A stretch of DNA of 64,000 nucleotides, taken from Octopus vulgaris (Eukaryota). Positions 43,838 through 56,904 of the stretch are shown in pieces. The position numbers and the translations under genes are program-made. A model generated the notes under the pieces. It was given only the letters and a program-made list of their open reading frames with translations. It was not told the origin of the DNA and did no database searches. Every line of letters begins with the position of its first letter. The first letter of the stretch is position 1. The stretch spans positions 21,452,001 through 21,516,000 of the forward strand of contig OX597837.1 in the NCBI GenBank assembly GCA_951406725.2. Direction: 5' to 3'.

Positions 43838-43968
43838 CAATTACATCAAATCAGATGATTTTTCTCAATCATTGGATGAAGAAATGGTTAGTGATGAAAT
43901 TTTGGATGTTGAATCTGATGAAGAAACTATCCCTCAGTTTGATGGGCCAATTGATGAAAAACCTGCTG
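43838..43968 (+). CDS. REV3L: REV3L coding exon, 131 bp, phase 2-1
   Basis: atctttgcAG / GTaatt. Translates NYIKSDDFSQSLDEEMVSDEILDVESDEETIPQFDGPIDEKPA, containing the REV3L IPQxDG motif. Confidence 0.9.
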
Positions 43969-45481
43969 GTAATTAATTAGATTTTAACCTTTTCATTATT
44001 GTAATTCTGTTTTGATTAAATTCTAAAACCAATATGAATACAGACTGGTTTAACAACTGTGACTTTTTAAATGTATTTTAGGAATTGGGTGCAAGGTGCA
44101 GGCATAGCTCTGTGGTTGAGAAGTTTGCTTGTCAATCATATCGTCTTTGGTTCAGTCCTACTTTGAGGCACTTGGGGCATGTGTCTTCTACTATAGCCCT
44201 GGGGCAACCAAAATCTTGTGTGTGAATTCGGTAGACAGAAACTGAAAGAAGCCTGTCATGTGTGTCTTATTGCCCCTCTCTCTCTCTCTCCCTCTCTCTC
44301 TCCCTCCCTCCCTCTCTCTCTCTCTCTACCCCCCCCACCCGCCACACATAGGCTTAACAACCAGTTAGAGTTAGTGTGTTTACGCCCCTGTAACGTAGCA
44401 TGGCCACAGTCTAATGGCTGAAATGAGAACGTTTTAGATAAAGGAAAGTAAAAGATTTGAATTCAATTGCAAAAAAAATTTTAAGATCACAGAACTCGTG
44501 CTATAATGATGCTGAATGGTTGTTGATGTTTAGCACCAGGTCAACCCGATGGAGCTTTGACTAAAGGCATTCCAGCAGTGACCATTTCTGTCTTATTACT
44601 ATTCATTGTGAACCTAAAACTACATTATCTAATGTGTCTTTTTGTAAGATGGAGAAGTGTGACTTAACCCCTTAGCATTCAGACTGATCTGTCAAATCTA
44701 ATGCTTATTTATTCCCATTATTTTGAAGTAATCATGCATTATCTCATTGCTTCAAAGATGTCATTGTTTTTTTTTTTTTTAGAATGACATTGTAGGTTAA
44801 AAGTGAGAGGCCAGATATGGCTGGTTTAGATGCTTTTACTGGTTTCAGTCATTAGACTGGCCATGCTGGGGCACTACCTTGAAGAATTTTTAGTCAAATA
44901 TACCAACCCCAGTACTTATTTTTTAAAGCCTGGTACTTATTCTATCAATCTCTCTTACTGAACCACTAAGTTATGGAGGCATAAATACCACCAGTGCTAG
45001 TTGTCAAGCAGTGTGGCAGGGAACAAACAAAGACACACATGCATAGATATATATACAACGAGCTTCTTTCAGTTTCTATCTGCCAAATTCACTCTCAATG
45101 CTTTGATCAGCCCAAGACTATAGTAGAAGACACGTTCCCAAGGTGTCACATAGTGGGACTGAACCCAGAACCATGTGGTTGGAAAGCAAGTTTCATACCA
45201 CACAGCCAGGGAGATTGAGTTACTTTTCCTTCCCTATTTGGTTACTGTTTCTTACATAAAGGCTCCTTTGTTGGCTCAGAGTACGAGTGATTATCACTAA
45301 CTTTGCAACATGATTTCCATTGTAATTTTGATTTAAATATGAATAAGTAAATCCAACTAGCTTTGAGATGCCCTGCTTTCAAAAGGGTTTTAAACTACAA
45401 GTATATCCATTGCTGGTATTTTGTTCTTTAATTATGCACATGTATACATCTTTATATATAAAATATCTCTTATCTTTACAG

Positions 45482-48400
45482 ATGAACAACCAAAGATTCG
45501 CAAACGAATGGGTCCTCGTGGCCCTGTAATCAGCTCTGCCAACAATCCCTCCCCTGTAAGTTCCGAGGGACAGGCTTCAAGTTTTTCAAATTATGGCCCT
45601 ATTTTCCAAAATGACCCTGGATTCCTTGGCTCCGGTTCCAATATGCAGGCCTACCAAAGTCCAACAAATTATCAGGATTATGATCGCCGATGGGATACTC
45701 ATGCATTTCGTGAGGATATGTCTAGCGGTGTTCCTAACGTCGATCAGCAATCATCTCACTGGAACCCTGCATGGTCACGCTCTTTACACTCAGCACGTGC
45801 TGATCCTTCCAGTTACGCTGGGGCCGGTAATGTGCATGGTAACAATGGCAGCTACATGACAGAAGGCTTCTCCCGTCCATATGCCAATCAGCAACCCCAA
45901 AATCATCCCTCACAAGCTGCTACATTAAGTGAATCCAGCACTGATCAATATCCTGCTTCATTTCCTTATGACATGACGAACATATATAGTCCGGACTCCT
46001 ATTCACGCTCACGAACATCTGACAGTGGGCACACTTCAGATCCACACAACAGCCCCTTCGCTGGCCATTTATCCCCGTCCCCCGGTTATTCTCGTGATGG
46101 ATTCGAATCAAGCCGATCTCCTGTTCCACTCTCTGGAAATGTTGGAATACAAGGATCAGGTAGTTCTATGTATAATCAGACCCCTTCGTTGCCTCCTCCT
46201 GAGGAAAGCCAAGGTAGTTTCCACAAATTATTAACTTGTAACGACAGCCCAAAGCAAACCATTCCAGCCGATCTTTCAACCCATCAGTCATTGCAGCGAA
46301 GTATCAGCCGATGCTCCACACATTCTAGTGAATCAATAAGTATGGGTGCCAGTACTACACCTGACCCTTTTAAGAGTCTTCCAAAACCTGTTTCTTCAGA
46401 AGATACTACTATGGAGACTTTTGAAAAGATGTCAAGCATAGAAAAGTTAGATGAAACAGCCGAAGGTCGTTCAAGTGTTGATTCTTCAAATCATCCCCCA
46501 TCGGAAACTGGAAATGCTTCACTGACTCCATTAGATGGTAGTAACTCACAAAAGAAACATATGTCCTCAATTAACATAAGCCATGAAGATTTATTTGGAA
46601 CCCCTTCTCTTAATTCTTGTGCTGATCTTTCCTCTGATTCTTTCACCTCTGCTGAAGGTAGCCGACACCAGAGTGTTGTTGACCAATCAAATCAAGGCTC
46701 CTTCATTTCTTCAGGATATTCAAACAAGAATACGTCACACCCACAACGTTGTAGTTCTGTCACAAGCGAAGAAGAGGCACCCAGTTACCAGTCGCTGACT
46801 ATGTCGTTCCCCGGTAACCAAACCGGTAACCGCAGTCACTCGGCGATAGCCAGCCTGGAACAGATGGTGTCTAGTGTCGGAGGCTATGATATTGGTTATG
46901 ACTATGCAGCTTTTCCGAACAGAGCATGGCAATGTGCTGGTACTCAACCATCTCACAATGTTACCCCTCTGCACAACATATCTGCTGGTCCAACTATGCC
47001 CCCAGGTGGGAATTTGCCGGCCAACACCAGTATGCCATCTGGTACAAGTATGTCAACTGGTTCAAATATGCCTTCTGCTCCAAGCATATCATCTGGCCCA
47101 AACATGCCCCCCAATCAAACGTTGACGTCTGGACAGAATATGACGAGATCAAATATGCCTCCTGTTTCAAACATGACATTAGGTTCAGGTATGCCCACTG
47201 GATCAAACATGCACTCCGCTCCTAACATGACACCTGGACATAATATACAAAACCGTAACCTGTCATCTTCTGGACACAATATGCCAGCAATGTCACCTGG
47301 TCCTTCTCTCACTCCTACGAATATGCCCCCACATAGCATCCCTACTAACCACAATATGCCATCAAGGCCGAATGTCGCTCCTGTGAACATGTCTCAAAGC
47401 CAGCACGTGACTCAAGTGCGTGCTTTGACACCAAGTATGTCAACGAGCCTTCATGGAGGTCATACTATGGGCCGAAGTGTCACTCCTCATGGGCATGGCC
47501 ATGCAATGCACCCACAAGTCCACAACATATCTCAGGGTCACTCTGTTCATCCCTCTCACAACTTAGCCGCTGCACCTCAACTTCCGCCACCAGGTCACAG
47601 TCCAGCTACTTCTCCTCCCAGTGCCCATGGTCACAATATGTCCGGTCATAGCATATCTTCTGGTCATAACATGATGCAAACTCACAATCTTCCTCAGGGC
47701 CATCATGTTTCACAGGGGCATGACAGGTCCCACTCATACAACATATCTGAACCGAATTATACCACACAGGATGTCATGATGCCTAAACAGGGTCGTATGG
47801 CTTTAAAAAAGAAACGAGGTGAAACGGATAACTGGTCATATGGTAAATCATATTATCAACAAGGTAGATCTTGGAATCAGCACCCTGGACCTCCAGGTCA
47901 AAATTATAGGAACACCACTTATTGGAGGTATATGGATACTTACCAAACTTACCAAGGCTATGTTCAGAATCCCAAGGTGGAACCAGGAACTATTTCACAA
48001 ACTCCAAAACTACAGCCTGTTCTGCCTCCTGGAACACCACCTGAAAAGAGCAAGCGTGGAAGGAAAAGGTCTTCTTTTACTATGGCTAAATCTATGTCAG
48101 CTATGCCTGTGGATTCCCAACTATCGCAGTATACTTACACTTTCCATGTGCCAACCCCGATCTACAAACGGCTTAAACTTCTCCAAAAATCAATGATTCC
48201 TGAAGAGAATGCTGTTTGCATTGTTCGCATGCACCCAATGGACGCTCGCCGCTATAGTTTGCTTAAAATTGGTCGAGAGCTGGTAAAGATTCCAAAGCTG
48301 GAGGAACGAGATATCAAAAGAATTCAGAAGGAAATTAAAGAGACAGGTTATTATCCTGGAGCGTGTTCACGTTTTGGTTATATGGTTCCATCTGATCAGC

Positions 48401-51400
48401 CAAGTATATCGACTAAAATTGGTTTATTGCCAGGTTTGTTGAATGAGCCAAAACCAGTTTCTTCTTATGAACCTGGTATTAAGTATGTTACAGTGGATAG
48501 GAAATTGCTTCCTATGAGTGCTAAAGGAATGGGTAAAAATGCTCCATCGGGATTTCAATTAGAATATGAACGAATGTTATCCCAGAATCCTCGAAACCGT
48601 GCAAGGTCTAATGTCAAGATTAAATTGACTAAAGCAAAAGAAAAACGTCGGCGAAAGAAAGTACGTGTGACTAACAGGAGAAAGGGCTCTTGTGATTTGC
48701 TGTCCGACTCTTCGTTATACACAGACTGCTCCCTTGTTTCTCAGTTACCTTACAACAAGAATTTACCCAGCACCAATCCTCATAACCAGTATTTACTCCC
48801 ATCCTCTGCATCAGAAATAACAAGTCATAGCAAGACTCCTGTGTTAATAGAAACTCTGCATTCGCCGCCTATAGCCAATATCCAGTCTTCCAATGCAACT
48901 GAAAACACGTTACCGCCTGTGAAAACCACGCATGTTAGGCGTTCAACTCGCCCTTTTCCCAAACACAATGTTGTGCCACCCCTCCCAGGAGCAAGACCTC
49001 GCATCATCACTGACAACAAGTACCGTAGTAGTAACAATAATAATTTTAATACACAAAATAGCCAGCTCCCTACCTCACATGCAACAAATATCACTCCTCC
49101 AGTCAAACTGTGTCCAGGTCAATGCCCTGAGCAACCCACTAATCTTACTATGAGTCTCCCTCAACAAACTGCTGATACTACTTTTGACGCTCACCCCAAA
49201 ATCGATAACATAACAGAACCTGAAGTCGGGCCAAATTCCTCCAACAATTCTTCACCTAGTCCATTGAGTTCCTGTAAAGATAATCAGTCTCCTTTTCCAA
49301 CTAACATTGGTTCACCTCATGACCCCCCACCAACATCTGGTTCATCCCTGTGGCAACCCAGTAATACACCAACTGGACAAAGTTTCACCGTTAACTCTTC
49401 TATTCAATCCTCTTCAAACAGCCAAGATTCCCAGCAGGTGCGCAAGCGAAAACTGGGTTCTGATAATGGAAGCCAAGATGGTTCAAAACGCACCATGAAC
49501 TTTTCCACAATGGATTTCACAGATATCTATGATCCTCACTTAGAGGGCTATGATGATGATGATGTTGACGCAGATGACGATGACGATGATGACGATGACG
49601 ACGACGACGATGACAGCCACGATAACTTTGATCATAAAGCCTCTTCCGGAAATGTTTGTTGTCTTGTTGTCAACAAAAGAGCACACCAGAGGTCTCTAGT
49701 GGTGAAGTTGGAGAAGTTAAAGCTGCCAAGTAAAACGGTGAAGGCCAGTGAATTTCTTGCTACACGTGATGCCATTCCACATCGTAGTTGTGTTGGTAAC
49801 AAAATACCTGGCCGTATTGAGAATATTGGATGGGAAAGAATTAAACTAGCTGATAAAAATAAATATCGTGGTGGAGTACCTCTAATGAGTTATTCAAGTC
49901 CAATAAGTGATGATAATGGACGTCTTTCCCTGTTCACTCAGCATTCTGGTAGCATGTTCTATGACCGACCAGCTAGTGACTATTTTCAAGATGAATATTT
50001 GGGAGTGGCTATTGCAGGAACTCTTGATGAGCCCAATGATACTGGTTTGCTAATGTCACTTGACGACGATGGCTACTCCCAAATGATAAATACAGATTCT
50101 AGTTCAGGGGAAGATGCAACCATAAGCTACGAAGAAGAATTCGAAATAAAGTCCCGAGGCAAGAACAAACGTAAAAGAAACCTCACTCCTAACCAACGTC
50201 TAGGTGTTGCTTTCTTGACTACGAGGCATCGCAGAAAACGTGCAGTTGCAATAAACCATGGAAAACTGATGAACAGTTTGTCTTTGTTGCATCAAGCAAC
50301 ATTGGCTAAATTATCAACACTCTCCACATACACAGATTCTTCTGATGATTTTAAGAAAACCTACAATGATGTTATGTCAAAGTTAGCATTATTTTCTCCT
50401 CCTGTTTCTGAAAAAGGTGATACCTCTCCGCCCCAGCCACTATCCCCTGAAGAAAATGCACCTCTGCCAGTAGTTGACGGGAATCCTGACGACGTCTCGC
50501 TTGATTCGACCGATGGCGTTTTGTCTCAGCCTAACTTCCTGTCTCAAACTTCCTTAGATTCGATCTACGAGACCCCTTTGTCTAGTGTAGAGACACAGCG
50601 CTCCTGTGAATCAGCCAAATCCCCTAGTCTTACATCGTTGGGTGGATCTGAAACAGAGCCAACCAGTGATATAATAGTACCAGTTGTGAAGCAAGATGAA
50701 GCTGCAGAAAACAAGTCTCCGCCCATTCCAACATTGTTGTCTTGGAAAAATGACGCTCCTACCGATAAATCACCCTATGCTGTAAAGACGGCTGTTGTGA
50801 AGCTCATTCCACGTGCAAGATCTGGTAGTAAATCTAAAGTTGATTGCAAACCTGAGTATAATGATTTGGAAGCTACTTTTTCTCTTAACCCCGCTACTCG
50901 AAATTTCTCCCTCGTTAATTCCAACCAACAAAAAGAATCGAGTGAACTTGAAGGTTTCCCTAATGTACAGTTTCGTATAGAAACTTCTCAAGCTAATAGT
51001 AGGCTTGTAGGGAGCAATCAGTCATCAAATTGCACTGAAGACGAAATTAGTCGAGCTGAAGAACAAACTAATACTTCCCCTCGTCCCTACCAGATGGGCA
51101 ATTATTCATTTAATTGCCCAGCAGAAACCAGTAGTGACAGATTAAATAGTTATTCTAATTGTGATGCAGCTGATATGGATGTAGGATATCTCATGGATAA
51201 AATAGACAACGAAGAAACACAAAATACTTTGATTGAAGAGAGAGAAACAGTATCAGAGGTTTGTCACAAAGACTCAACTGAGTCGTCAGAAGTTGAGTTT
51301 AAAAATATTGCGAATAAGCTACCAGCTAGTCCTGGAATTGAGTCAGGTGAGAATTTAGAGGAGACAGAGAAATCAACTGAACATCAAGTTTTGCAGACTA

Positions 51401-52154
51401 CACAATTGATCTGTGAATTGAACAAAGAAACGGAAGAAGCTACTGCAAAGCAGACAGGTGTTACGTGTAACAGTGAAATGGTAGAATCTGCACAACGAAA
51501 GGAAACTGTGAAGAAAATATCAGAAACTGCAGATCAGGAAAATGGGGTTTCTAAAGCAGCTTCAGAATCAATTAAGAACACAACTGAGTCTCATTTGCAT
51601 ATTGGATCTCAAAATACCATTAGTGAAGAAGGTCCACTCAATGATGTTAGTTCGCAAAGAGAGGTGAATGGTGGGCAGTGTATCACCACTTCTAAGCAAG
51701 GAGAAATCAGTAGATCTGGCGAAGAAGTAGAACAGGGTAAGAAAGCATTAGCAGCTGAAGATGATGTCTTTAACTCCGACATAACAACATTGGATTTGTC
51801 CGTAAGCCATAAAACAGGTGTTTTACAATCAAGCAAATCTTCTGGTAATTCATCAAAAGAGAAGGAGTCGGCTGACACTAGTGAACCCAACCAGACTAAT
51901 CAAGCAGCTACAAAGGAATCTCAAAAAGTTAATGTGGGTAGCAATGAAAGTATAGGCTCTGAGAGACAGGACGATCACTTTAAAAATGCCAGTCCTCAGC
52001 CAGTCGCTGGCAAAGAGTCTCTGGTATTAACACCACGCGATCGTCCACCTAGCAAAGACTTAATCTGTCATACAGCAACAAAATATGGTCTCAGTATACC
52101 TAAGGTCACTGAACCTTTCTGTGGCAAACCTGAAGACATCACAGAAACACCCAG
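45482..52154 (+). CDS. REV3L: REV3L giant exon, 6673 bp, phase 1-2; largely disordered linker ending in a REV7-binding motif and EPFC motif
   Basis: Core of the 2251-aa ORF. Acceptor tatctttacAG is in phase with the previous exon. Ends LVLTPRDRPPSKD...VTEPFCGKPEDITETP-ag|GTatta, like the end of the vertebrate REV3L large exon (ILKPLMSPPSRE...QEPFCSNPSDVPEKPR). Confidence 0.93.
46954..47745 (+). repeat. Degenerate 18-bp / hexapeptide coding repeat, Met-rich then His-rich
   Basis: Units TMPPGG NLPANT SMPSGT SMSTGS NMPSAP SISSGP NMPPNQ ... HNISQG HSVHPS HSISSG HNMMQT HNLPQG HHVSQG. Confidence 0.8.
49552..49614 (+). repeat. Poly-Asp coding tract with mixed GAT/GAC codons
   Basis: DDDDVDA followed by a run of Asp, in frame. 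Confidence 0.9.
52021..52053 (+). other. REV7 (MAD2L2)-binding motif, RBM1-like
   Basis: LVLTPRDRPPS fits the hydrophobic-hydrophobic-x-P-xxx-PP consensus at the position equivalent to human RBM1. Confidence 0.8.
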
Positions 52155-55114
52155 GTATTACAAACTATTGTTTTGATATCATCTTGATCTTCTTTTAAAA
52201 CTTTTTATCATTTTTTTTCTGCCATTTCTGATCAATCAGCATTCGGGTGACTGGTGGAGAAAAATTTTGATTGGGATGTGAAAGCAGTTTATTTTATTTT
52301 ATTTAAAACTTTTTTTTTTAAAACTCCTTTTCTTTCCAAAATTCTCTGACCAAGAAAAGAGCAGAAACACCCTTCTATAGTCCATGCCAGCTATTTTCTT
52401 TTAAATTGGTCCCTACACTTGGCACCAACAAACCAAATGTGTATACTCTCTTTTGGGGCTTAACTGACATTGCTCATTGAAAGAAAGTCTGCCAGCTGAT
52501 TCTAGAAGCTGATTGGATATTAGACAATCCCTCCAGATCCCTTGGAGATATTCACACTTTATTGTCCAACCCATAACACACCACCCTCAGGCATCACAAC
52601 TTATAATATTGCTACCCTCAGGCATCACAAACAGTTTATGATAATAGGTTTAGTTCAATTTCAAATAATTTTTTTAAAAAAAGAGGAGACCCTTACACAC
52701 CCATATGAAGCATTAATTATTACTCATACATACATCATACACACATAACATTTTTACTCCATACATACAGATGCATACCTCAAGCAATATAAAGTACAGT
52801 TTAGACAATACCTGGCAGACAGTCGGATACTTCTAACACTTTGTATTGTAATCATTGCATATTTTGTAGAAATGGTTCGCTTTTGATTCCCGTTTGCGAA
52901 CCATTTCATTTATGTCACCTATGCCTCGGGGAAAGGCATGAATATCACAAATTTCCCTTCCTCTATAAAATGAGGCTCCATGCCAGTGTCAAAGTTATTA
53001 TTATGATTTCATTTAAAAAGGATTTTGTTTTGTCATTTTTCTCTGTTAGATCCTTCCAGAGATGTTTTTGTTCACTTTGGAAGTCATCTATTTTGCTTGA
53101 CCCTTACTTAATGGCTAGCTGCTTTCTTTGTCCCTTTGGAGAGGGTTTTGCTGTGTTGTTGTTTGCCCACCAGAAACAATGGATTCAGTTGACTTGTCTG
53201 TTAAGCAGACTGCTGTTGTAGAAAGAAGGATCACCTTTGTAGAAATAGTAGTTTAGGGGTGTGGCGCATGTCCTCCAGTCAGCTCAAAGTTGGTCGATAA
53301 TGTACACTTTTGGGATATCTAGTATCTTTTTGCCTGCAAATATTGTGTATGTATGTATGTGTGTGTGTGTATGCATGTATGTATCCCTCTGTCTATCCAT
53401 CTGTGTGTGTATATATATATATATATTATCTATATATATATGTGTGTGTGTGTAGGAGAAATTACAATAAACACAAGTTTATATCATTTGTTCCCCTGTA
53501 CATTTTACAATTGTGGTTGTTTGGAACTCCTGCATTTGATGTTCCAATTGCAGTTGAATGCTTAACCACTACAGCTCATCGAGGGAGCACTTTATTGCAT
53601 TATGTATCAGAGAGCTAAAGTCACGCGCGCGTGTGTGTATATGCATATATATTATATATATGTATATATAAAATGTCTGATGTTTGGCACGATTTAGATA
53701 GCTATCTTATGTATGTATATATAATATGTATATAATCTGGCCATACCGTGACTGTGAGTGGTGAAGAATATATATATATATATAGTATTTTGAAGACTCA
53801 GTTGTTTCATAGGTATGTGGTTGTGTTCCTGTTTTTCTTTCTCTGTAAAAGACAGATACTTTGTTATAAAAACAAGCCTTTGCTATAAGGGTCAAGTTGA
53901 AAATTTCTCTCTCTCTCTCTCTTCGCGTACTACATGCTAGTTGATTATGGGATTAGTTGTGACTCAATCGAATGGATTATTTTTCATGGATATCTCTTAG
54001 CTTGTTTGTTATGTATGTGCGAGTATTTTTTTGGTTTGCTTGATGTGAACATGCCTCATTCTGTAAAAGTATTTCTCACCATCTCTCACAATCTTTTTGA
54101 TTTAAAAAAAAAATTTTTTTTTTTTTTCCTTTCCTTCCTATCGCTATCTTCATTATTCTTCTGCCTCATTGAAAATGGCCAAAGTGTTCTGTGAAACTAG
54201 GAAAAAAAAAACAAAAAGCCAAAAAAGAAAAAAAACAACAAAAAACAAACGAACAAACAAAAATATGGAAAGAAATAAAAGCAAGAAAAACAAAAAAAAA
54301 AAGATAACGAAACAAACAAACAAATAAATAATTCCTCATCACAAAGACGAAAAGAAAATGAATTGAAAGAACAAAATAAACAAAGAAACCAAGCAACATT
54401 GAAACTTCCAAACTGTATCCATTGTTTTTCATCCGATAGATTGGCCTATTTATTTGTTTACCAGTCACTCTCCTTGACTCAAATTTCAAAAAAACTAAAC
54501 CCTCAGCCCTGAAACCTTTTTTTTTTTTTTTCCCCACCCTAAATCCCCCCCCCCCCCAATTTCTGTTGAAAATTTGTCTGTCGTTATGTACTTGTCTTGT
54601 CAATCTCTCTTTGGTCATTAAACTTGTTTTCCCCCTCCCCGCCTCCACCACCACTCCTCTACCTATTTGGACAAATTATTAACTGGTCTGTTCCTTCTTG
54701 TCCCATCCCACACTCTGACCCACCCCCCACACCCTACATCACAGATAATCAGGTTGCACAACTATTCGATATATCAATACAACATTAAGCTTCTTTTTTT
54801 TTTTTCTTTCTTCCCCTATTGGCAAGAGGATAAAAAAAAAAAAAATGAAAACTAAACAAATAAAGAGACATTTCAAAAGACAAAATTCAAACAAGGACCC
54901 TTTCTGAAGAAGCCCATAGCGCCATGGATTACGTCTTCATCAATATGGTATAACATATATATATATGAATATATATATAGTTCCTTCTTTCCCATCCTCA
55001 TCATTATCACTACAATAATTGAGCTCTGTCCCTCCTTTCCTCGACCCCCTAATCTTTCTTTCTGTGTCACTATAATTCTCTGCATTACCCATTCCTAACA
55101 ATGCACAACATTTT

Positions 55115-55160
<46 letters not shown>

Positions 55161-56904
55161 AGGCTTAAACATAGATACATACACATGCATGCGCACACGC
55201 ACGCACACACACACACACAAGTGTTGTGAAGAGAGCTAAGGTGTCTGTGTGTGTGTGTGTATGTGTTAAAGGAACACCCCACCCCCCCAACAAGAACCAT
55301 ATTTCATGTGTCAATGCATTGTGAAAGTTGGACTATAAACATCTGTATTTGAAGATGTCGGATTTTTTTCTCTCTCTCTCTCTCCCTTTCCCCTCCTCCC
55401 CCTTCCCCCCTCGATCTTGAAACACTTTACAAAAGCATTGAAGGAGAAAGAAAAAAAAGTCATAATTAAAACGTTTAAATAAAAACCAAACATCATCTTA
55501 TTTTTTGTGCGTATGTTATTATGTCAGAGTGCATGTGTGTGTATGTGCATATATATATATGTGTGTATATATATATTTTCAAACACACATGCACGCATAT
55601 GTGTGCATATTTTTGTGTGTGTCTATTTGCAATGTGTAGTTGTAGTCCATTGATTTGTTAACATACCTCTTATCTTTATACATTTCAGATTCGTGGATTT
55701 TTCATTTAATGTTGATATAAGATTTTAAAGTCTGTGTGTGTGTGTATGTGTGTTTTTATTTCTGCGGTCATTCATTGTTTCGTTTGGGACTTGTTTCCTT
55801 TCTTTAACTTCTACCTCCATAAGAAAATGTTTTGCTTTTTCTGTATACACCCTCCCCTGTACTTTCTCAGCACTAGGCATTTTACTGGCAACATGTTTAG
55901 ACACAACTCATCTTTAGTAGAGCAGACCTGCATTCCAGTTGTGACTCTCACATCTTTTTAGAGGTATCTAGGACTACATCATCTCGTATGTCCTTTCCTT
56001 GTTTTATTAAAGTAATAAGGATGACTTTGAGGGAGGTTTGACTGCTATGTTAGCCAGTTTGAGGACAACTGTGTTGAGGCTCCCTCATTGCTTTTAGATT
56101 TATCAGGTAAGGAAACTCGGTCACTTATTCTGTGAAATGGTTCCCTTTCTGTAAAGTAAAGCTTAGCAACTAGTAGTTGTACATTAATTTATCTTCTTCT
56201 AAAGAGTATTGGAGCCAAAGAAGTCACCTTGCTAAAATAAGCAGTAAGTTCTCATAAATCATAGCCTGCCATCTTTGATATAAAAAAAGTAACACATTTG
56301 ATTAGTCATTTATACTCTTAAAAAGATGATGTAACAGTTACAATTAGCATGTTATTGATCATAGACCTGTTTGTTCCAAATTGACCGGGGGTTAAATAAC
56401 ACCAAAATACATTATCCTTTGCATTGTAATGATAATCTTAAAAAATATGGTTGGTTATATTTAAAGGGAAAATATCCATAAGCTGTTCTGTGCTGCACCA
56501 CATACCAAACTCTCCCATATCCACCTTGTCTGCCTCTGGACTACAAAAGTTTCTTTGGTTTGAATTTTTTGGGTGGTTTCTGAAGAAAGCTAGTTTCATG
56601 GCAGGAAGTTGCCAGCTCTGGCTTAAGCCTTCTCTTTTACTGGGTGTGGAAACTAACTGACATTCTCATTTAAATGATAATAACCAAAGAGAGAACAATC
56701 AATATTGAGAGGGAGAATTGATGTTGGTACTTTTAGTTTATTGACCTTAGAAAGATAAAAGGCACAGTGTGACCTTGGCCGTAATTGAACTCAGATCACA
56801 GACCCAGAACCAGTGTCACATGGTATTTGTCCAGTGTTCTAATTATTCTGCTAGTTCACCAGGCAAGTTCTTGGCAGAAGCAGTGTCTTCACCATCATAA
56901 TTTC

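Follow-up and report, generated by a model that had tools for sequence, protein, structure and literature searches.

A candidate polymerase-less form of octopus REV3L ending in a composite terminal exon

The choice between secreted and membrane IgM depends on a composite internal/terminal exon at which intronic polyadenylation takes place. We have analyzed a window of 64,000 nucleotides of Octopus vulgaris DNA (assembly GCA_951406725.2, contig OX597837.1, positions 21,452,001 to 21,516,000 of the forward strand; all coordinates below are those of this window) that contains the giant exon of the polymerase zeta gene REV3L. We conclude that a conserved composite terminal exon, formed by intronic polyadenylation downstream of the giant exon, probably gives rise to a REV3L isoform that lacks the polymerase.

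NEXMIF (KIAA2022) and AHDC1 are, according to passages of PMC4699697, PMC6895278 and PMC12476444, large, single-exon-dominated, non-catalytic proteins that share the DUF4683 domain with the large exon of REV3L. Mammalian REV3L itself is described, in the passages available, as being controlled through a non-productive 5′ isoform, a cryptic acceptor in the large exon that is repressed by RBMX, and cleavage by Taspase-1. According to the available passages of the RBMX preprint, the human large exon harbors the cryptic acceptor and other long exons undergo premature polyadenylation; no comparable REV3L form is described there. A literature search, with subscription journals largely outside its coverage, found no report of a polymerase-less REV3L form generated by intronic polyadenylation.

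Contigs of run X1 fork at the donor of the giant exon

The long open reading frame at 45394–52176 corresponds to the giant REV3L exon, which occupies 45482–52154 of the plus strand (6,673 nt, ca. 2,224 residues, largely of low complexity) and is 99.9% identical over 2,225 residues to Octopus sinensis XP_029650343.2, a protein bearing all five polymerase zeta domains. The REV3_N, POL3_N, exonuclease-like, PolB and C4 zinc-finger domains score above Pfam cut-offs in protein P0011, whose exons align in order along the octopus locus when mapped onto the window together with 140 kb of downstream and 40 kb of upstream DNA; a first coding exon could not be located within the 40 kb upstream. The giant exon is preceded by an exon at 43838–43968 (plus strand) and separated by a 23,008-bp intron from a 40-nt exon; the exons for the polymerase lie beyond a further intron, of 26,067 bp. 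The 40-nt exon lies at window-equivalent positions 75163–75202 (L012:1163-1202), and no mapped intron of the gene is longer than the two that flank it; those that come later mostly measure 0.7–4 kb.

The exon/intron boundary falls at 52154/52155, within the plus-strand 5′ splice site CAG/GTATTA (52152–52160). In agreement with the sequence-only reading, which was made from the letters of this stretch without database searches, reading through this site adds YYKLLF in frame after an arginine and then reaches a stop (codons at 52156–52176, TGA at 52174–52176). This stop precedes every exonuclease and polymerase exon, the first of which begins some 49 kb beyond it, so a product ending here has no PolB catalytic domain. 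The exonic CAG of the donor is perfect, but its intronic half matches the consensus at only one of the four positions +3 to +6, tied for lowest among 30 reliably placed donors (two misplaced ones out of 32 were dropped); each of the 10 reliably placed donors upstream within the window matches at three or four.

Twenty sequencing runs from nine studies, all in the form of assembled contigs, were found to hold at least half of the words of region 51200–56200; 14 of them (six studies; contigs of 31–199 million letters) were guessed to be RNA. Four runs, X1, X7, X14 and X17, were compared over 49700–53330. A fork at precisely 52155 is seen among the contigs of run X1, so that one and the same donor is both spliced and read through. 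The exon contig (depth 24) is continued by a read-through branch of depth 14.5 that reaches 53330 and by a spliced branch (depth 4.82) that carries the next exon, located 23 kb away, at its loose end; it follows that the donor is in use and that X1 holds spliced RNA. In X7, a single 9,963-nt contig of depth 81 crosses the donor, and in X14, which bears another organism code, a 4,388-nt contig does so; no spliced branch is listed for either. Read-through contigs were thus present in three of the four runs. The fourth, X17, has no listed piece at the donor and no unique cover of 50944–53330, which is uninformative, since the filter omits records. The X7 contig and the X1 exon contig contain ca. 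2,070 and 1,650 letters, respectively, beyond exon and tract; judged by length, these would fit a leader together with the coding exons upstream, which amount to about 1,540 nt.

A search with the last 861 residues of the exon returned eight proteins. One of them, P0003, ends in ...DITDTPRYYKLLF, i.e., in the same YYKLLF that the octopus read-through encodes. P0003 is only 46% identical to the octopus protein overall (668 of 1,451 columns) and 15–23% identical across the 400 columns that precede the REV7 motif, compared to 96.7% for O. bimaculoides; judging from the proteins, P0003 comes from a deeply diverged relative, probably another coleoid. The end of P0003 was taken as a stop from the protein alone; a metagenome scan for its DNA gave 110 pattern matches, none of which was confirmed. 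With intron triplet frequencies, and the introns assumed to be unrelated, the chance of five identical residues and a stop past the first tyrosine, which is constrained by the donor, is about 9e-8. Proteins P0006, P0008, P0009 and P0021, some of them from gastropods, terminate at the same junction with KPR or NPR, as would be expected from a GTAA, GTAG or GTGA donor. The YYKLLF tail thus seems, on the sequences compared, to be specific to cephalopods. No further tails were obtained from a search that gave 2 candidates, from two of the 3 hits of another (P0022 being the third) or from 4,984 shorter candidate proteins. The new C-terminus (52156–52173) is hydrophobic, ending in LLF, which, speculatively, we take to resemble a class II PDZ-binding end. 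AHDC1 is described, in the passage available, as having a C-terminal PDZ target.

Two alternative explanations of the read-through bear on these contigs directly. The giant exon could run on to a later donor past 53330 and be spliced from there, the premature stop making the RNA a substrate for decay. Poison switches of this kind typically show an in-frame stop and conserved sequence beside a regulated donor, and contig placement ends at 53330. However, the contigs contain no joint and no second donor within 49700–53330, i.e., none over the first 1.2 kb of the tract, and the read-through form is abundant, which would be unusual for a decay substrate. We consider a poison extension very unlikely.

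The sequence-only reading had itself offered another alternative, namely, that the tract is the 3′ untranslated region (UTR) of a nested minus-strand transcript overlapping the end of the exon. The contigs are strandless, and minus-strand AATAAA hexamers are indeed present at 52288 and 52298. Nevertheless, the X1, X7 and X14 contigs continue unbroken past 52290 into the exon, and none of the 12 minus-strand intron frames tested (out of 23) matched a Pfam family, which is a weak test. A minus-strand transcript would also leave the plus-strand YYKLLF-stop tail of P0003 unexplained. This alternative found no support, and there is little reason to believe it.

The repeat-poor tract and its poly(A) signals

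The region immediately downstream of the donor, 52155–56885 (4,731 bp), is the longest of 253 stretches without locally repeated DNA in the gene, the next being 2,985 bp and the mean 322 bp. In the 2.8-Gb genome as a whole, its only matches are microsatellite mixtures and one low-copy 220-bp segment until the first multi-copy dispersed repeat (55926–56060) closes the repeat-poor tract, leaving ca. 3.75 kb without high-copy dispersed repeats. The tract, which the sequence-only reading called TE-free, is thus not quite so: the 220-bp segment (52799–53018) is a relic with a hairpin (z −3.3 versus shuffles) that is 80% identical to one place on contig C2 (L002:1501-1709) and 85% identical over 55 bp to another (L030:1501-1555). 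Its minus strand reads as decayed coding sequence. Neither the 51-aa minus-strand frame, which is interrupted by stops in the other two copies, nor a 138-aa plus-strand frame in the tract matched any Pfam family. Likewise, the homopolymer and dinucleotide runs noted earlier hold up in part: the tract contains 12 homopolymers of at least 8 nt versus at most 6 in 28 control windows, but its 15 dinucleotide runs are ordinary (up to 21 in control windows).

Could the tract be repeat-poor by chance, and the read-through be leaky processing without function? A warning comes from an 8-kb stretch past the end of the gene that is locally repeat-free and yet holds retroelement-like frames, so local repeat-freedom can mislead. 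However, the tract lacks high-copy repeats genome-wide as well, and the tail is identical in proteins that share just 46% of their residues. We regard this possibility as scarcely probable.

The tract contains AATAAA at 53466, 54274, 54323, 54375, 54859 and 55478, including the three hexamers singled out by the sequence-only reading (54274, 54858 and 55478, the second being at 54859). Their presence carries little weight, since AATAAA occurs 67 times on the plus strand of the window. The hexamers at 54274, 54323 and 54859 sit in A-rich ground without a U/G-rich downstream stretch, in or beside three A-rich runs (54198–54250, 54277–54312 and 54824–54856, plus strand). The best candidate poly(A) signal is at 55465–55545 (plus strand) and consists of ATTAAA at 55465 and AATAAA at 55478 followed by a U/GU-rich stretch. 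The hexamer at 55478 is tied for first of 37 intron hexamers by downstream T+G content and is followed by the most GU dinucleotides, which are in part a TG repeat. Repeat exclusion stops about 430 bp past this signal. We therefore propose 52177–55500 (plus strand) as the likely 3′ UTR of the short form, covered by contigs to 53330 and suggested beyond that point by word shares. A transcript ending at 54400 is expected to contain at most 0.64 of the words of 51200–56200, one ending at 55497 is expected to contain 0.70–0.86, and one with no end in the stretch at least 0.83. The 14 runs guessed to be RNA contain 0.72–0.82, a weak hint in favor of an end near 55500 over one at 54400.

In the main rival explanation, the read-through contigs represent pre-mRNA, unspliced or detained, from which the long intron is removed late and which is captured via A-rich runs; the conserved bases following the donor would then control splicing so as to hold polymerase zeta back, and little YYKLLF-ending protein would be made. 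The three A-rich runs within 54198–54856 would serve such capture, a 23-kb intron followed by a 40-nt exon favors unspliced RNA, the upper word share of 0.82 comes close to what full coverage of the stretch would give, and conservation of the tail is seen at the protein level alone. On the other hand, the read-through branch in X1 is three times as deep as the spliced one, and X7, at a depth of 81, has no listed spliced branch. Furthermore, a short control element would fail to explain why repeats are excluded from 3.75 kb that end after a good poly(A) signal. Pre-mRNA capture is, in our estimate, unlikely, though better placed than the other alternatives.

Several observations weigh against a composite terminal exon and have to be set beside those that speak for it. 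The word share of 0.82 is barely below the 0.83 floor for an endless transcript, 7.6% of the words are of low complexity, and simple repeats elsewhere can inflate the shares. Contigs carry neither strand nor 3′ end, their depth is crude and their placement stops at 53330. Only X1 is proven, by its splice junction, to be RNA; X7 and X14 are near-identical to the window and may be its source or hold DNA. The A-rich runs could capture unspliced RNA on oligo-dT. The U1 duplex energy of the donor is 14th of 30, i.e., mid-rank, and the earlier claim of a weak donor is thus borne out for its intronic half but not for the site as a whole. Deep conservation comes from one protein, P0003, and at the protein level selection on the peptide is indistinguishable from selection on an RNA element. 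Finally, an older O. bimaculoides model, XP_014783418.1, also ends in YYKLLF, which is weak support. The newer model, P0002 (XP_052832126.1), ends in SNYSFKCLNVWDDIL, a read-through of a later donor, and the O. bimaculoides annotation splits REV3L into two loci; such endings can therefore be assembly breaks, and the older model counts for little.

On balance, a composite terminal exon is the probable explanation, given that the contigs fork at the donor, that a stop follows in frame, that the tract is poor in repeats and that the tail is shared. The polymerase-less isoform proposed by the sequence-only reading is accordingly supported by read-through contigs and by the tail of P0003, while polyadenylation in the intron, plus-strand origin and translation of the read-through RNA are steps that we infer.

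Some features were recorded in passing. The second-longest locally repeat-free stretch, of 2,985 bp, lies in an upstream intron (L026:9227 to L025:2211). Beyond the end of the gene (L018:7001 to L019:5300; L021:8389 to L022:4518), there are long minus-strand frames of up to 899 aa, candidates for a retroelement reverse transcriptase that, judging from its motifs, is presumably of the Penelope type. An Rfam search gave 18 matches, all below the gathering score and mostly to microsatellites, and a PDB search gave a single weak match, to SUMO2, which was rejected.

Predicted products of the short form

A composite terminal exon would operate as follows. Splicing at the giant-exon donor would be slow, owing to its weak intronic half and the succession of 23-kb intron, 40-nt exon and 26-kb intron, and 3′-end formation near 55500, ca. 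3.3 kb into the intron, would often win over it. With its stop in the last exon, the RNA would escape junction-dependent decay. The predicted protein would have ca. 2,745 residues (P0011 numbering from MFSVRIV) and consist of the N-terminal domains followed by the product of the giant exon and the YYKLLF end. The same switch would reduce the output of active polymerase zeta.

The giant exon supplies this protein with the first of two REV7-binding-type motifs, VLTPRDRPPSK (52024–52056, plus strand), which fits the consensus in the passage seen of PMC6895278 except for K in place of R. The second motif is in an exon 49 kb further on, so that the short form would keep one REV7 motif, as had been predicted, and lose the other. 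A chromatin factor or a sink for REV7, as put forward by the sequence-only reading, are hypothetical roles for such a protein.

The kinship of the exon to the NEXMIF/AHDC1 domain, which the sequence-only reading had pointed out, is supported. The block at 50215–50448 (plus strand) matches DUF4683 weakly in octopus (16.3 bits at E 0.0085, against a cut-off of 27), but the homologue P0006 passes with 43.6 bits; P0008 scores 21, and Pfam finds no DUF4683 in P0003, P0004, P0007, P0009, P0011 or P0013. The nearest Atlas clusters to the conserved block are those of NEXMIF (0.87), which we treat as a lead only. No second copy of the block was found in the octopus genome, where it has a single match; a DUF4683 search of the genome gave no match anywhere, and neither did the controls, so it is uninformative. 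P0006 contains two RGRP motifs, and the octopus exon has only KRGRKR. The RGRP motifs resemble AT-hooks, which AHDC1 has as well.

Just ahead of the giant exon, a Taspase-1-type motif of the form Q-[L/F]-D/G-x-x-D (cut between D and G) is present as QFDGPID at 43935–43955, octopus residue ca. 504. Corresponding motifs are found in other molluscs (P0004, P0005, P0007 and P0015): QFDGASD in Patella and QLDGASD in Gigantopelta and Pomacea. The human REV3L motif is QLDGTAD, in which residues Q523, L524, D525, G526 and D529 are needed, as given in a passage of PMC7144948. In the part seen of PMC13408197 (2026), the large exon and the cleavage motif are called vertebrate-specific. The giant exon and putative Taspase-1 motif in octopus and three gastropod genera, as read from their sequences, conflict with that statement.

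The same source describes, in the passage available, how the halves of cleaved mammalian REV3L rejoin via the exonuclease-like domain. In the octopus short form, Taspase-1 would cut at QFD/GPID and generate pieces of ca. 506 and 2,239 residues. Since the exonuclease-like domain is absent from this form, the larger piece would be a free exon-only protein, retaining the DUF4683-like block and the single REV7 motif. An excess of the N-terminal piece could, in addition, reduce polymerase activity; a section of PMC11364643 is titled “N70 negatively modulates REV3L activity”.

We tentatively suggest, as a possibility more doubtful than the composite exon itself, that coleoids make a counterpart of NEXMIF/AHDC1 from REV3L in this way: intronic polyadenylation and Taspase-1 together would yield, as the main product of the gene, an exon-only protein of 2,200 residues that is nuclear and has a conserved YYKLLF end. 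If so, vertebrates copied the exon into separate neurodevelopmental genes, and cephalopods arrived at a similar outcome by RNA processing. A conserved, possibly dominant insert-only transcript would show that the REV3L insert, a relative of NEXMIF and AHDC1, serves a function by itself. The arrangement would also provide a simple switch that controls how much of a mutagenic polymerase is made.

Comparison with known systems

As in IgM, the donor is read through into a short intron-encoded tail with a stop, and an intronic signal would terminate the RNA, at the expense of the domains encoded further downstream. The octopus case differs in that an entire B-family polymerase would be dropped, the poly(A) site is a predicted one and the kept exon measures 6.7 kb. 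The octopus form would thus work like known composite-exon intronic polyadenylation, while this form of REV3L appears to be unreported.

The exon-only product would be similar in build to NEXMIF and AHDC1. However, the vertebrate proteins are encoded by separate genes, whereas the octopus form would be an isoform of REV3L and no stand-alone gene; its DUF4683-like block scores below the Pfam cut-off, and it would keep a REV7 motif.

Mammalian REV3L offers a parallel in regulation. In both cases, RNA processing around the large exon, together with cleavage immediately ahead of this exon, would restrict the output of polymerase zeta, with the cleavage motif at a matching place (residue ca. 504 in octopus and 523 in human). 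The passages available on mammalian REV3L do not mention any transcript terminating after the large exon, and it is in this respect that the octopus gene would differ.

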